Virus record (IMG/VR): IMGVR_UViG_3300005573_001627
Length of the DNA: 64,000 nucleotides
Direction: 5' to 3' (one strand)
Origin: a virus
Taxonomy: Duplodnaviria > Heunggongvirae > Uroviricota > Caudoviricetes
In this document: positions 24,787 through 58,786 of the stretch, piece by piece
Numbering within the stretch: the first letter of the stretch is position 1
How the letters are laid out: every line of letters begins with the position of its first letter
Notes under the pieces: generated by a model
Seen by the model: only the letters and a program-made list of their open reading frames with translations
The model's database searches: none
Told to the model about the DNA's origin: nothing
Made by a program: the position numbers and the translations under genes

Positions 24787-24801
24787 CGAAAGATTTAAAT
24801 A
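24787..24801 (+). promoter_or_regulatory. archaeal BRE/TATA promoter CGAAAGATTTAAATA
   Basis: consensus shared with 3 other sites. Confidence 0.6.
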
Positions 24802-24843
24802 TGCCTTTATACTATTCAGATTTAACAGCCGAGTGCTAAATAA

Positions 24844-24860
24844 TTAATTAGATAAATAAA
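24844..24860 (+). promoter_or_regulatory. conserved 17-nt leader TTAATTAGATAAATAAA abutting ATG
   Basis: identical copies at 40437 and 58770. Confidence 0.55.
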
Positions 24861-25751
24861 ATGATTGAGTGGATAATAATAACCATCGCGATAATAGCGG
24901 GATTTTATTTCTTAACTGGGATTAGGATTATCAGACCACAATATCGCGGAATTGTTGAAACACTTGGTAAATTTACTTCAATAAGACAACCGGGATTTAA
25001 TTGGATTGTTCCAATATTCCAAAGGATGATATTTATTAATATTACTGAAAGGATGACAGATATTGAGCCTCAAGTTGTTATAACCAAAGATAACTTGAAC
25101 TGTAAAGTAGACCTCGTAGTTTATTTCCGAGTAAAAAAAGACCCAAAAGAGGTATTTAAATCAGTTTATGAAGTTGATGATTTGGATTCTCAGTTAGATA
25201 CTTTATCAAGGACTACTGCGCGTAATGTTATTGGTACATTGCCATTCAAAGATGTCAATTCTGAGAGAAATGAATTAAACAAAAGATTACAAGTAATATT
25301 AGCAAAAGAAACTGCTGATTGGGGCGTTGAAGTTCTTAAAGTTGAATTAAAAGATGTTGTTCCACCCAGTGATGTCCAAGAAACTATGAATAGAGTTATC
25401 AAAGCCTCTAATGAGAAAGAAGCGGCTGTTGATTTTGCAACCGCTCGTGAAACAGAAGCAGATGGAGTAAGAAGAGCAGCAATTAAAGAAGCAGAAGGAA
25501 AGAAACAATCTCAAATTCTCGAGGCTGAAGGACTAAAACAATCTAAAATACTGGTTGCACAGGGAGAAGCCGAAAGAATTAGATTAGTTTATCAAAGTTC
25601 TGATAAATACTTTGTCAAGAACGCTAAAGACCTAAAACAATTAGAAGTAACACAAGCAAGTCTAGAAAATAATTCAAAGATAATCTTAACAGATAAAGGA
25701 GTTGCACCACAATTAATTATTGGTGAATTACCCCTTGAAAAGAAAAAATAA
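24861..25751 (+). CDS. SPFH/band-7 (stomatin/HflC-like) membrane protein
   Basis: N-terminal TM then band-7 core (RGIVETLGKF..NLNCKVDLVVYFRV..), coiled-coil tail. Confidence 0.8.
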   Translation: MIEWIIITIAIIAGFYFLTGIRIIRPQYRGIVETLGKFTSIRQPGFNWIVPIFQRMIFINITERMTDIEPQVVITKDNLNCKVDLVVYFRVKKDPKEVFKSVYEVDDLDSQLDTLSRTTARNVIGTLPFKDVNSERNELNKRLQVILAKETADWGVEVLKVELKDVVPPSDVQETMNRVIKASNEKEAAVDFATARETEADGVRRAAIKEAEGKKQSQILEAEGLKQSKILVAQGEAERIRLVYQSSDKYFVKNAKDLKQLEVTQASLENNSKIILTDKGVAPQLIIGELPLEKKK

Positions 25752-25830
25752 TATTTGGTTTGATGCTGTGGAGTATTCTACGGTTAGGTATTGTACGATG
25801 GAGCGGGTATTGTACGGTAAGGTAAATAAA
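25752..25830 (+). repeat. G+T-rich leader unit
   Basis: GGTATTGTACGATGGAGCGGGTATTGTACGGTAAGGTAAATAAA then ATG. Confidence 0.5.
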
Positions 25831-26076
25831 ATGAAATTAAGAATTGAAGGTTCTGAAATAACAAAGAAGGATTTGTTGGAGATTGGTAAATTTATGGCTA
25901 ATTATTTTGCTAATCGCAAAGATTTTATCTCTTTTTTTATTGAAGAAGGAACTCAAGATATGAATATGCAAGAATGTGAATCGTTGTTTAACAAAATGTT
26001 TGAAGGAAAGGAACATTTTGTTACTAAGATACATATTAAAGAAGACAAAAAAATAGGCGAGGAAGGAAATATTTAA
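25831..26076 (+). CDS. hypothetical protein
   Basis: start at MKLRIEG after leader. Confidence 0.45.
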   Translation: MKLRIEGSEITKKDLLEIGKFMANYFANRKDFISFFIEEGTQDMNMQECESLFNKMFEGKEHFVTKIHIKEDKKIGEEGNI

Positions 26077-26122
26077 AAAGGAGTGTTACTTAAAAAAATA
26101 GAGGTAAGTAATTAAATAAGAG

Positions 26123-27070
26123 ATGATAAAGAAAAAAGTAGTGATAGTTGGGATGGGATATGTTGGTTCTGCAATGACCAATCTTCTCAAGAATCATTTT
26201 GAAATTTATTGTTATGACCCTGCATATCACCCAGGAATCAAGTATTCTGATTATGCTGATGTAATCTTCTTAAATAATATCCAGGACCATCCTAATGACG
26301 CTATCCTCGGAGTGGTTTGCACCCCAACCCCTTCTAATGAGGATGGCTCCTGCGATATTTCAAGGGTTGAAGAATCGATACAAAAATTGAAAACTCCTTT
26401 AATTCTCTTAAAAAGCACAGTGGAAGTTGAAACAACTGACCGATTAAGACTTCTTTATAAAAAAAGGATTGTGTTCTCTCCGGAATTTGTTGGAGAATCA
26501 AAATATTACAATCCTTACTTTAATGATAATATGCTAGAAACTCCTTGGGTTGTACTGGGTGGAGCCCCGGAAGATACAAAAGAAGCGCTTGAGATATTAA
26601 TAAAAGTTCTTGGGCCCACAAAGAAGTATTATCAATGTTCTACAAAGGAGGCGGAGATGATTAAATATGTTGAAAATGTTTTCTTTGCAACAAAAATTAC
26701 ATTTTGTAATGAGATTTATAATCTTTGTGAAAAAGCAGGAATTGATTATTGGAAAGTGCGTGAAGGCTGGTTACTTGACCCAAGAGTCGGAGGAGATGGA
26801 ATGCATACTGCTGTTTTCAAAGAAGAGAGGGGCTTTGGAGGAAAATGTTTCCCAAAAGATACTAAGGCGCTTATTAAATATGCAGAAAGAAAAGGTTATG
26901 ATGCAAATTTAATCAAAGAAGTAATTAAGAGTAATGAACAATTTAGAAATCCGCCAAAAGAAAAGGAAAAATGCGGATATGATAAATATCTTGAAGAAAA
27001 GAAAAAATTAATTGGTATTGAAAATGAGTCCCAAAACCAAACCAATAGAACCATTGAGAAAAAAATGTGA
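26123..27070 (+). CDS. UDP-glucose/GDP-mannose 6-dehydrogenase family protein, C-terminally truncated
   Basis: VVIVGMGYVGS Rossmann start; GGKCFPKDTKAL catalytic-Cys motif; only 315 aa. Confidence 0.7.
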   Translation: MIKKKVVIVGMGYVGSAMTNLLKNHFEIYCYDPAYHPGIKYSDYADVIFLNNIQDHPNDAILGVVCTPTPSNEDGSCDISRVEESIQKLKTPLILLKSTVEVETTDRLRLLYKKRIVFSPEFVGESKYYNPYFNDNMLETPWVVLGGAPEDTKEALEILIKVLGPTKKYYQCSTKEAEMIKYVENVFFATKITFCNEIYNLCEKAGIDYWKVREGWLLDPRVGGDGMHTAVFKEERGFGGKCFPKDTKALIKYAERKGYDANLIKEVIKSNEQFRNPPKEKEKCGYDKYLEEKKKLIGIENESQNQTNRTIEKKM

Positions 27071-57628: not shown

Positions 57629-57854
57629 AAAAGCCTATTGGTATTTTGTAATATTAGTCTATGTTTGTATTATAGCCACTGCCATTTGCGTAATTTTAGC
57701 GATGGAGTCGGTTTCAAGAGATAATAAAGAATATGCTACAAATATCTGTAAGAATTTAGATTTGGACCTTCTAAAATATAATACTTTTGTGTCTTCTGTA
57801 ACTTCTGTTACTTGTTATAATCCTATCACCAAGGAGATTAAGGTTATAAAATGA
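57618..57854 (+). CDS. TM-anchored small Cys protein
   Basis: 78 aa. Confidence 0.4.
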   Translation: MMNKKAYWYFVILVYVCIIATAICVILAMESVSRDNKEYATNICKNLDLDLLKYNTFVSSVTSVTCYNPITKEIKVIK

Positions 57855-58258
57855 ATAAAAGAGCACACGGACTTGTTGAAGTAGAAACTAATCAATTACC
57901 AAATTGGTTAGCCATTCCATTAGTTATACTTATTTGTATAACTCTTCTTGTTGTAATCCTTTTTTTGAGTGTTGTAATTTATTCTTGTTATAAAGGGAAT
58001 TGTAATGGATATTATGGAGTCCCAATGTGGGTTTATAGAGCCGGTCCGGTTCTGGGTTTTAGAGAATGTACGGTGAATGGAGCGCCCGTTAATTGTTCAG
58101 AGATAAATTATACTCCGCAGGGTAGTGTTGATAAAATTTGGAGCGACGGAACCTATTCATACAATGGATTCCCTCCAGATATGTATGTTTATTACTTGAA
58201 TGGTTCTTTTAAACAATATGTAAATAACACTGATTGGATATTTCCAAAACCAAAATAA
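57851..58258 (+). CDS. TM-anchored Cys-rich protein
   Basis: 135 aa. Confidence 0.4.
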   Translation: MNKRAHGLVEVETNQLPNWLAIPLVILICITLLVVILFLSVVIYSCYKGNCNGYYGVPMWVYRAGPVLGFRECTVNGAPVNCSEINYTPQGSVDKIWSDGTYSYNGFPPDMYVYYLNGSFKQYVNNTDWIFPKPK

Positions 58259-58259
58259 A

Positions 58260-58535
58260 ATGGCCGGTAAATGTAGTATTTGTGAAACAGAAGAAAGCAA
58301 ACATTGGTTATGCTGTCTTGGAGGGTGGACTCTTTGTGATGATTGTGCAAAAGATTATGGTGATTTTGGACTCCAACCAAAGAATGACCAAAACATTGTT
58401 ATCTTAATGGAAGTTTATTTTAGACGAGGAAAAGGAGAAAAGATTTCTTATGAACAATTACATAAGGAAAAATGCGATTTTAAATTCTTAACTTTTAAAG
58501 ATTTATTTAAAATGAAAAATGAGAAAATTAAATGA
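58260..58535 (+). CDS. zinc-binding protein
   Basis: CSICETEESKHWLCCLGGWTLCDDC. Confidence 0.4.
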   Translation: MAGKCSICETEESKHWLCCLGGWTLCDDCAKDYGDFGLQPKNDQNIVILMEVYFRRGKGEKISYEQLHKEKCDFKFLTFKDLFKMKNEKIK

Positions 58536-58734
58536 TATCTCTGCATTATTAATAATCCTCTTTTTGACCACAAGTATGAGTTATTATGCCAAAGAAGAAC
58601 CAAGGAATGATTTAATGGTTACAATAATTGGTATTTCTACAATAATCTTTTCTCTTTCTTATTTTACTGCAAAATTGTCGAGGAAGACTTCAAAGAAGAA
58701 AATAATTAGTGGGCAAAAAAAAGGAATAGCATAA
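58519..58734 (+). CDS. small membrane protein
   Basis: 71 aa. Confidence 0.35.
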   Translation: MRKLNDISALLIILFLTTSMSYYAKEEPRNDLMVTIIGISTIIFSLSYFTAKLSRKTSKKKIISGQKKGIA

Positions 58735-58769
58735 ATTTATTAAGGTAGGATTATAATTAAATTAATTAG

Positions 58770-58786
58770 TTAATTAGATAAATAAA
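58770..58786 (+). promoter_or_regulatory. conserved 17-nt leader TTAATTAGATAAATAAA
   Basis: third identical copy. Confidence 0.5.

Follow-up and report, generated by a model that had tools for sequence, protein, structure and literature searches.

The question raised by this locus was why three genes of a virus-like element are preceded by one identical sequence that runs directly up to the start codon. The locus lies in a stretch of 64,000 nucleotides (nt), called the window here, of the virus record IMGVR_UViG_3300005573_001627 (Caudoviricetes). Two of the genes encode proteins of the SPFH/Band_7 family and the third encodes a YbjQ-type protein, and a first-pass annotation of the same DNA had joined them, together with a LemA gene, into a putative membrane-stress regulon. 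It was found that the shared sequence, a 17-mer, is one case of a wider leader type that stands before unrelated genes as well and is built of tandem tetranucleotides, each containing a stop triplet; therefore, it marks a class of start sites and not a membrane-stress regulon. With a confidence slightly short of even, these arrays are taken to be a class of 5' leaders, independent of the Shine-Dalgarno (SD) sequence, on separately promoted genes.

The 17-mer TTAATTAGATAAATAAA had exactly three matches in the window, all on the + strand and each directly abutting an ATG (24844-24860, 40437-40453 and 58770-58786), as the first-pass annotation had reported. The count remained three even when two mismatches were allowed, and it was reached in 0 of 100 shuffles. 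The genes that follow are SPFH1 (24861-25751, + strand), encoding a stomatin/HflC-like SPFH/Band_7 protein of 296 amino acids (aa); SPFH2 (40454-41257, + strand), encoding a prohibitin-like SPFH/Band_7 protein of 267 aa; and the YbjQ gene (58787-59068, + strand), encoding a YbjQ_1 (DUF74-type) protein of 93 aa. The Pfam matches (Band_7 E 4e-42 and 1.5e-30, with 144.7 and 107 bits against a cut-off of 23.6; YbjQ_1 E 4e-10, with 40.5 bits against a cut-off of 23), together with that of the LemA gene (29328-29933; E 2e-38), bore out the identities assigned earlier. The description of the leader as SD-less and AT-only up to the ATG was upheld for the 17-mer stretch, and no SD-like motif was found 4-15 nt upstream of the three ATGs. 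The reverse complement of the 17-mer had no match in the window within two mismatches, and there is therefore no obvious antisense RNA partner. Scans of the window against Rfam and for tRNAs also gave no matches.

The distribution of this sequence outside the window was also studied. The exact 20-mer made up of the 17-mer and the ATG gave 13 genome, 23 metagenome and 1 viral matches in public collections. The 13 genome matches were all bacterial and none archaeal, mostly from Bacteroidota and other AT-rich bacteria, and among the matching loci only copies of the same element were related to the window by blastn. The matches elsewhere are chance occurrences in AT-rich DNA; therefore, the exact 17-mer is not a host-wide context. 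The 24-mer had no match in IMG/VR.

The 17-mer proved to be the 3' part (two-thirds) of a 24-nt array of six NTAR tetranucleotides, each unit consisting of a stop triplet (TAA or TAG) and a spacer base, usually A or T. When an array was defined as (NTAR)n with at least 4 units, the + strand of the window contained only five, all of which ended 1-3 nt before a gene ATG. The three that contain the 17-mer have six units followed by A and the ATG, namely, the SPFH1 array (24836-24859, + strand; CTAA ATAA TTAA TTAG ATAA ATAA), the SPFH2 array (40429-40452, + strand; CTAG ATAA TTAA TTAG ATAA ATAA) and the YbjQ array (58762-58785, + strand; TTAA TTAG TTAA TTAG ATAA ATAA). The fourth (26104-26119, + strand; GTAA GTAA TTAA ATAA, then GAG and the ATG) leads a UDP-glucose/GDP-mannose dehydrogenase gene (26123-27070, + strand). 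The fifth (31718-31737, + strand; ATAA ATAG ATAG TTAA CTAG, then AAA and the ATG) leads orf202 (31741-32349, + strand), a 202-aa gene without an assigned function that has a TTTATAAA box at 31689-31696. In the 9.4 kb past the window, three further arrays were found on the gene strand (+), 1-6 nt before an ATG, and the genes they precede include those of 75 and 306 aa. Over the 83 kb in total, NTAR arrays stand at eight sites, seven of which abut called gene starts. Thus, the exact 17-mer is not ubiquitous, a possibility that the first-pass annotation had named as fatal to its proposal, but the grammar of the 17-mer does precede unrelated genes.

It could be argued that the arrays have no function and arose by AT-biased mutation and slippage where stop-rich sequence is tolerated, the identical copies being recent duplicates; this is very unlikely. 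NTAR arrays are barred from + strand ORFs (open reading frames) and hence are necessarily intergenic, as such an origin would predict. In Markov-2 shuffles of the window, a mean of 0.4 arrays of at least 4 units was obtained compared with 5 observed on the + strand, and a mean of 0.005 arrays of at least 5 units compared with 4 observed. Because the arrays cannot lie inside + strand ORFs, an intergenic-only shuffle is the fairer null, and dinucleotide shuffling of the 43 gaps between genes in the extended 83-kb sequence gave a mean of 0.08 arrays versus 7 observed (the eighth, at 72221, was missed by the gap definition). Moreover, six of the seven gap arrays ended within 3 nt of the 3' end of the gap, and the gaps were 46-190 nt long. 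The arrays are also heterogeneous, with 2-4 different units each and at least 3 in all but one; seven unit types occur in strict NTAR arrays and twelve when the fourth position is left free. Slippage is therefore unlikely, and the arrays do not consist of the identical repeat units of a microsatellite.

The grammar of the arrays was then compared between genomes. Close relatives of the element were found via SPFH1 orthologues (76-81% identity) and one SPFH2 orthologue (86%), and they are syntenic; the SPFH1 neighbourhood (S-layer-like gene, two small ORFs, SPFH and dehydrogenase) is kept in L042, L045 and L048. In these three and in L052, there were six arrays of at least 4 units, all of which lay on the gene strand, with 1-6 nt between array and ATG, and led SPFH1, SPFH2, the orf202 family (twice), a third SPFH gene and a DEAD/ResIII helicase gene. 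When orthologous arrays were compared (SPFH1 four times, SPFH2 twice and orf202 three times), the units differed and the T-A was kept; the orf202 array, for example, reads ATAA ATAA TTAG ATAG ATAA in L042 and ATAG ATAA TTAA ATAG ATAG TTAA in L048. By this comparison, it is the grammar that is conserved between orthologous arrays and not the words. That the grammar has outlasted the turnover of sequence at orthologous positions in three gene families also speaks against an absence of function. A distant SPFH orthologue (54% identity, on an IMG/VR contig) has an ordinary GGAGG-containing AAAGGAGG instead of an array.

Within the units, T-A at positions 2-3 is invariant, and position 4, which was left free in the search, was A or G in 96 of 113 units. 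G occurs in the arrays almost only inside TAG, and UAA is more frequent than UAG. The most common ending is TAA-A-ATG (9 of the 15 arrays read). By construction, no ATG, GTG or TTG is possible within an array, and stops occur in all three frames.

A degenerate search of IMG/VR for (WTAR)5-A-ATG returned 96 stretches, and 80 loci (L063-L142) with 83 matches were analysed. In 56 of these 83, the match lay directly before an ORF of at least 50 codons in AT-rich viral contigs. The matches were mostly (ATAA)n-like, none was related to the element, and several came from contigs labelled as giant-virus metagenome-assembled genomes (MAGs). That simple repeats of the (ATAA)n type are common before ORFs in AT-rich viruses is compatible with functionless arrays; equally, a stop-rich AT array abutting the start codon is probably a recurrent, convergent feature of AT-rich viral genomes, and such arrays may be a widespread feature that has gone unremarked. 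The hallmark of the present family is the heterogeneous, TAG-containing array, which recurs in a single genome and persists between orthologues. In practice, NTAR arrays can serve to recognise genuine start codons and the borders of transcription units here, and probably also in other AT-rich viral genomes.

The regularity of the units suggests another explanation, that the arrays are an operator for a trans-acting factor that reads UAR/TAR repeats at 4-nt spacing and turns a set of genes on or off jointly. The factor, which would cover the start codon, could be a protein that binds RNA (perhaps ring-shaped or multi-KH) or a repressor that binds DNA, and the idea of a regulon would be kept, defined by the array instead of by membrane stress. 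The strict 4-nt period, the invariant T-A and the confinement of G to TAG exceed what composition or lack of structure would need, orthologous arrays differ in their words but not in their grammar, and the array always overlaps the ribosome-loading zone, ending 1-3 nt from the ATG; homogenisation within one genome would likewise fit co-adaptation to a single factor. There are precedents for the reading of such repeats: TRAP binds (G/U)AG repeats with 2-3-nt spacers and can occlude start regions, and HutP binds UAG repeats with 4-nt spacers. Like those operators, the arrays consist of tandem UAG/UAA-type triplets at a fixed short spacing, where binding would occlude the start codon. However, the spacer in the element is 1 nt, shorter than that of either protein, UAA is as common as UAG or commoner, and there are only 4-6 repeats, so that the likeness is one of resemblance only. 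In addition, the genes have mixed functions (SPFH, sugar dehydrogenase, helicase and unassigned), the leaders of one relative (relative B) are not homogenised, and the adjacency of (WTAR)5-A-ATG to ORFs in unrelated AT-rich viruses points to a generic property. No candidate factor was identified, and no search was made for a cognate protein of the TRAP/HutP kind. Overall, an operator is possible but unlikely.

The promoters of the array-led genes were examined in order to place the arrays relative to transcription. Archaeal promoters have an 8-bp TATA box of the TTTAWATA type with a purine-rich B recognition element (BRE, CGAAA) directly upstream, and transcription starts approximately 22-27 bp downstream of the TATA box. 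The BRE/TATA consensus CGAAASRTTTAAATA had four exact matches in the window (15331, 20875, 24787 and 40384) and one site with a single mismatch (13674), compared with 0.16 expected, whereas sigma-70-type sites were not enriched (71 in the window versus 78.7 in shuffles). The canonical archaeal-type promoter described in the first-pass annotation thus stood, as did its count of four sites and the identity of two 15-mers; the position of one of these, 15341, was wrong by 10 nt, the identical copies being at 15331 and 40384. The SPFH1 promoter CGAAAGATTTAAATA occupies 24787-24801 (+ strand), with the TATA 8-mer at 24794-24801, 67 nt before the ATG, and the SPFH2 promoter CGAAACATTTAAATA occupies 40384-40398 (+ strand), with the 8-mer at 40391-40398, 63 nt before the ATG. 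Upstream of YbjQ, a degenerate BRE/TATA-like stretch, GGAATAGCATAAATTTATTAA (58723-58743, + strand), aligns weakly to the SPFH promoters. A TATA box lies 45-67 nt upstream of the ATG in every gene with an array, and TTTATAAA/TTTAAATA boxes precede separately spaced genes both in the window and in its relatives.

The remaining consensus promoters serve genes without an array or behind an SD. The one at 15331-15345 (+ strand) lies before an unrelated DUF2774-like gene (15387-16295) with no array, the one at 20875-20889 (+ strand) before an S-layer-like 803-aa gene (20999-23410) with a GGAGG SD and no array, and the 1-mismatch site CGAAAGGTTTAAAAA (13674-13688, + strand) before a 62-aa ORF (13738) with a GAGGT SD. 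The consensus is therefore described as the generic strong promoter of the element. Between the SPFH1 promoter and the gene upstream of it, a terminator-like hairpin, TTGGTGGG...CCCACCAA followed by TTTT (24734-24770, + strand), was read directly from the sequence; a consensus scan did not list it. In the relative L045, a perfect 31-nt tandem duplication (TACCTTTATACTGATTTTATCATTAATTAAA twice) was seen at 9905-9975, between the SPFH1 TATA box and the array.

The host is most likely a DPANN archaeon, because the window carries BRE/TATA promoters and a complete pyruvoyl arginine decarboxylase gene (PvlArgDC, 63455-64000) whose product is 80-93% identical to proteins of MAGs labelled Pacearchaeota/Nanoarchaeota. 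An Asgard host, suggested by the label 'Thorarchaeota' on an SPFH2 homologue, was dropped in favour of DPANN on the strength of these PvlArgDC identities. The PvlArgDC gene, the strongest pointer to such a host, sits in a virus-like gene array and not in host synteny and is likely an auxiliary polyamine gene. In host-type DPANN loci (L160 and L162), most genes are SD-less, and their TATA 8-mer (TTTATAAA/TTTAAATA) ends 21-24 nt before the ATG. This suggests that first cistrons of the host are predominantly leaderless; the element, by contrast, makes heavy use of GGAGG.

This geometry bears on a further explanation, namely, that the arrays are promoter DNA, a second TATA-like or easily melted proximal element; the transcripts would then begin within the array or directly after it and would be leaderless or nearly so, like those of most host genes. 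The host-type genes are AT-rich between the TATA 8-mer and the ATG, the arrays are rich in TpA steps and hence TATA-box-like, and two genes of the element show the corresponding spacing: YbjQ has the TATA-like ATTATAAT at -36..-29, as leaderless-type host genes do, and PvlArgDC has TTTATAAA at -36..-29. However, SPFH1 and SPFH2 depart from the leaderless geometry, with a G/C-containing GAGTRC at -30..-25 and the perfect BRE/TATA at -67/-63 instead. The 4-nt period and the confinement of G to TAG would be needless in a promoter element, and a small sample of host-type DPANN chromosome (41 kb, 48 genes) contained no array next to an ATG. Promoter DNA is thus an improbable account of the arrays as a class.

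The preferred reading, an SD-independent leader, places the start of transcription at the repeats or just upstream of them. When the TATA-to-start spacing was calibrated on the host leaderless-type genes (21-24 nt), the predicted start fell at the 5' edge of the array for orf202, the dehydrogenase gene and YbjQ; for SPFH1 and SPFH2, it lay approximately 10 nt farther upstream. Transcription would accordingly begin at the array or approximately 10 nt 5' of it, and the 5' untranslated region (UTR) would be 20-37 nt long, A/U-only and unstructured, with the array as all or most of it. Folding of the leader RNA was no better than that of shuffles (z -0.03 to +1.4), and the idea of a riboswitch or thermometer was dropped for this reason. 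Within such a leader, which would contain no AUG, GUG or UUG and would carry stops in three frames, the genuine AUG would be the first usable start, and the small subunit would load without SD pairing. No GGAGG-type SD was present 4-15 nt upstream of the ATG at 24861, 26123, 31741, 40454 or 58787. Most of the other genes of the window lie in overlapping operon-like runs and carry a GGAGG/AGGAG SD, a signal that most operon-internal and several promoter-proximal genes use and the array genes lack.

Several points weigh against this reading. Approximately half of the promoter-proximal genes in the element rely on an SD and not on an array, and therefore the array is not needed for translation of a first cistron as such; nor does the proposal give a reason why only some genes carry one. 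What was observed comprises the arrays with their position and conserved grammar, the absence of SD and structure, and the homogenisation in one genome; the start of transcription, the transcription of the array and its part in translation were deduced. An unstructured A/U leader needs neither a strict 4-nt period nor G specific to TAG, and these two properties, which point to a repeat reader or to selection for stop codons, are only loosely covered. The ATTATAAT of YbjQ could mean that part of the YbjQ array is promoter DNA and not leader. Finally, in extracts of S. solfataricus, SD-less leadered mRNAs were untranslated, according to the work as cited in PMC7531240.

The presence of stops in all frames allows yet another interpretation, in which the arrays are three-frame translational insulators. 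On read-through or long polycistronic transcripts, they would halt, in whichever frame, ribosomes that had initiated or reinitiated between genes, directly before the ATG, with possible termination-reinitiation there making an SD unnecessary. A period of 4 puts stops in the three frames in turn, no start codon can be encoded by an array, a single base typically separates the last stop from the ATG (the TAA-A-ATG ending), and the genes are tightly packed and nearly all on one strand. Three-frame stop cassettes are engineered into vectors, e.g., as TAATTAATTAA-type linkers, and the arrays resemble them in that the spacing of the stop triplets is not a multiple of three and every frame is thereby closed before the start; unlike the cassettes, the arrays of the element are natural, have a conserved grammar and are placed in a putative primary-transcript 5' UTR rather than between translated ORFs. 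In archaea, termination-reinitiation is reported to act over very short distances only (PMC10666635), which is in keeping with the short interval between the last stop and the ATG. Against insulation, 46-190 nt separate the arrays from the ends of the upstream genes, some of which have a terminator-like hairpin, so that ribosomes from these genes would already be gone. No short ORF leading into the arrays is conserved upstream of them; a GUG mini-ORF is present in the SPFH1 leader only. In addition, AT-rich spacers are already rich in stops, such that six ordered units seem excessive. Insulation was therefore judged distinctly unlikely.

The proposed SD-independent leader was compared with known systems. 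Leadered mRNAs without an SD have been reported from archaea, namely, haloarchaea and Sulfolobus, and the mechanism of their initiation is treated as unresolved (PMC7531240, PMC2151090). The leaders of the element are like them in having what would be an SD-less 5' UTR of a few tens of nt on promoter-proximal cistrons, and in both settings internal cistrons otherwise use an SD and many first cistrons start leaderless. Unlike those leaders, which have no described grammar, the leader of the element is made up of an ordered series of units (TAA or TAG with one further base) that runs up to the ATG. In bacteria, AU-rich enhancers act through ribosomal protein S1, which is not known from archaea. 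A/U-rich SD-independent initiation regions and Bacteroidetes-type A-rich starts have also been described in bacteria (PMC5397173). The arrays share with these an AT-only unstructured sequence at the ATG, A at -1 to -3 and no SD; they differ in the archaeal host and in the 4-nt period and TAG-specific G, which are not known as features of those bacterial regions.

The organisation of the array-led genes also recalls phage morons, i.e., accessory genes that are transcribed on their own from a dedicated promoter to a dedicated terminator. As in morons, host-like genes (SPFH, YbjQ and sugar dehydrogenase) have their own promoter within a one-directional viral gene array, and a terminator-like hairpin with T4 stands before the SPFH1 promoter; downstream terminators are not clear. 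Unlike a sporadic insertion, the SPFH1 synteny is kept in all close relatives found. A stop-codon-array (tetranucleotide) leader was not found described in the open-access literature searched. Leaders that are A/U-rich and SD-less, and also shared viral promoter modules, are already known; the stop-array grammar is apparently undescribed.

A more far-reaching reading is that the (NUAR)n array is a dedicated signal that is read as a repeat, either by a trans-acting protein, from the element or the host, that would bind UAR triplets spaced by 4 nt and gate translation of a particular set of genes, or in a 5'-end-dependent, scanning-like selection of the start; on the sequence evidence, this is a doubtful possibility. 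Scanning-like start selection would need exactly such a start-codon-free, stop-saturated and unstructured leader, and if it were true, the element would be a natural, sequence-defined model for archaeal SD-less leadered initiation in a DPANN virus-host system. How the archaeal ribosome starts on such mRNAs is an open question (PMC7531240). The element family offers a compact, recognisable SD-less leader beside SD-led genes in one genome, and the NTAR leader is a concrete sequence that can be placed in reporters or looked for in transcriptome or ribosome-profiling data.

The identity of the three leaders was considered separately from the grammar. At -25..-1, the leaders of SPFH1, SPFH2 and YbjQ in the window are 84-96% identical (SPFH1 versus SPFH2, 96%), orthologous leaders across elements are 72-81% identical, and SPFH1 and SPFH2 of relative B are 77% identical. 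Farther upstream (-100..-26), the identity between SPFH1 and SPFH2 in the window is 63%. The SPFH1 promoter-leader module (24765-24864, + strand) is nevertheless homologous to 40362-40457 (75.7% over 103 columns, E 7e-10), and the two upstream regions have a 34-nt block in common (94% identity). YbjQ shares with the SPFH modules only its last approximately 22 nt and the degenerate BRE/TATA, and its array resembles an SPFH array with TTAA-TTAG duplicated. Duplication of an SPFH gene together with its promoter was rejected, as the two proteins are only remotely related, being distant paralogues with 31% identity over 87 aa.

Because the leaders of relative B are only 77% alike, the exact identity is specific to this genome and is no conserved regulon signature; the three-copy identity is not a sequence requirement of the family. 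Copying of the leader, or its short-tract gene conversion, inside this genome accounts for it best. Copying is also what a functionless origin of the arrays would expect, but the contrast between 63% identity upstream and 96% in the leader is not that of a simple recent duplication. The caveat attached to the first-pass annotation, that the copies might stem from recent duplication of flanking sequence, applies in so far as the identity looks like copying or gene conversion confined to the leader.

A shared cis element therefore exists, as an identical 17-mer at three genes and as NTAR arrays at more sites, but it is not specific to a coherent set of genes, since arrays also lead the dehydrogenase gene, orf202, the 75-aa and 306-aa genes and the helicase gene, and the consensus BRE/TATA also precedes the S-layer-like gene (20999), the DUF2774-like gene (15387) and the 62-aa ORF (13738). 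LemA has no array and is preceded by a GGAGG-type sequence; it lacks both shared features. The membrane-stress regulon of the two SPFH genes, YbjQ and LemA was not supported by this comparison, and on present evidence it should not be carried forward. SPFH1, SPFH2 and YbjQ probably share expression characteristics, and their co-expression is possible, whereas a function-specific regulon of the three is not supported. A reading of SPFH, YbjQ and LemA as a defence system was dropped as well: PADLOC gave no defence-system match for SPFH or YbjQ and only a weak one for LemA.

The genomic setting was confirmed to be a virus-like element. Metagenomic contigs of 130-170 kb contain the window, and the style of the gene array continues beyond both of its ends; the proposal that the window end (60-64 kb) is host chromosome was rejected because the gene array and further NTAR arrays continue past it. 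The element is one-directional and tightly packed, with all but two genes on the + strand (approximately 146 ORFs up to 60.3 kb; approximately 83 kb examined). The window encodes a primase-polymerase/DUF5906 helicase, a CCA-adding-type nucleotidyltransferase, an RNA ligase, DNA methylases, the S-layer-like protein and the UDP-glucose dehydrogenase. No close relative of the primase-helicase was found among deposited phage and archaeal virus genomes, and searches for IMG/VR relatives via SPFH2, YbjQ and the primase-polymerase gave only distant or uninformative loci. In relatives, the primase-polymerase/helicase genes (L054, 1975-6291; L159, 37-3138) are enlarged by LAGLIDADG-type insertions (inteins or homing endonucleases), which the copy in the window (37993-40263) lacks.

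The two opposite-strand genes (60805-63368, - strand; 517 and 323 aa) have no Pfam match. In this interval, the GC content rises (0.34-0.37) and GC and AT skew are lost, and it may be a module boundary or an insertion. The sequence past the window (positions 1-9368 of L059, reverse strand, corresponding to 64001-73368) encodes YdjM, a PolB-exonuclease fragment, TPM_phosphatase, a second LemA and many small ORFs. The combination of LemA and TPM and the presence of multiple SPFH paralogues recur in the element family.

A second class of intergenic element was observed in long non-coding gaps, which contain the repeated G+T-rich words GTCCTGT, TGTAATGT, GTATTGTA and GGTTTTGT on the + strand (9011-9359, 10637-10730, 11214-11289, 12689-12773, 13188-13285, 17101-17470, 46400-47200 and 48380-48411). 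Three copies spaced by approximately 100 nt lie at 46882-47113, and a similar style is seen before a gene of L045 (10895-10963). These words are possibly iterons, origin sequences or another leader type. In addition, a 65-nt direct repeat with 78% identity, beginning with TGACCATTTTACGC, was found at 7857-7921 and 17046-17110, where each copy lies across the end of an ORF and the beginning of the gap after it. Finally, four small ORFs (2314, 5408, 51472 and 56133) start alike, with AAAATGA..AAAACAAAATGCCCTTATTGT in the DNA and M..K.KCP.C in the protein, which suggests a scattered family of small zinc-ribbon-like proteins.

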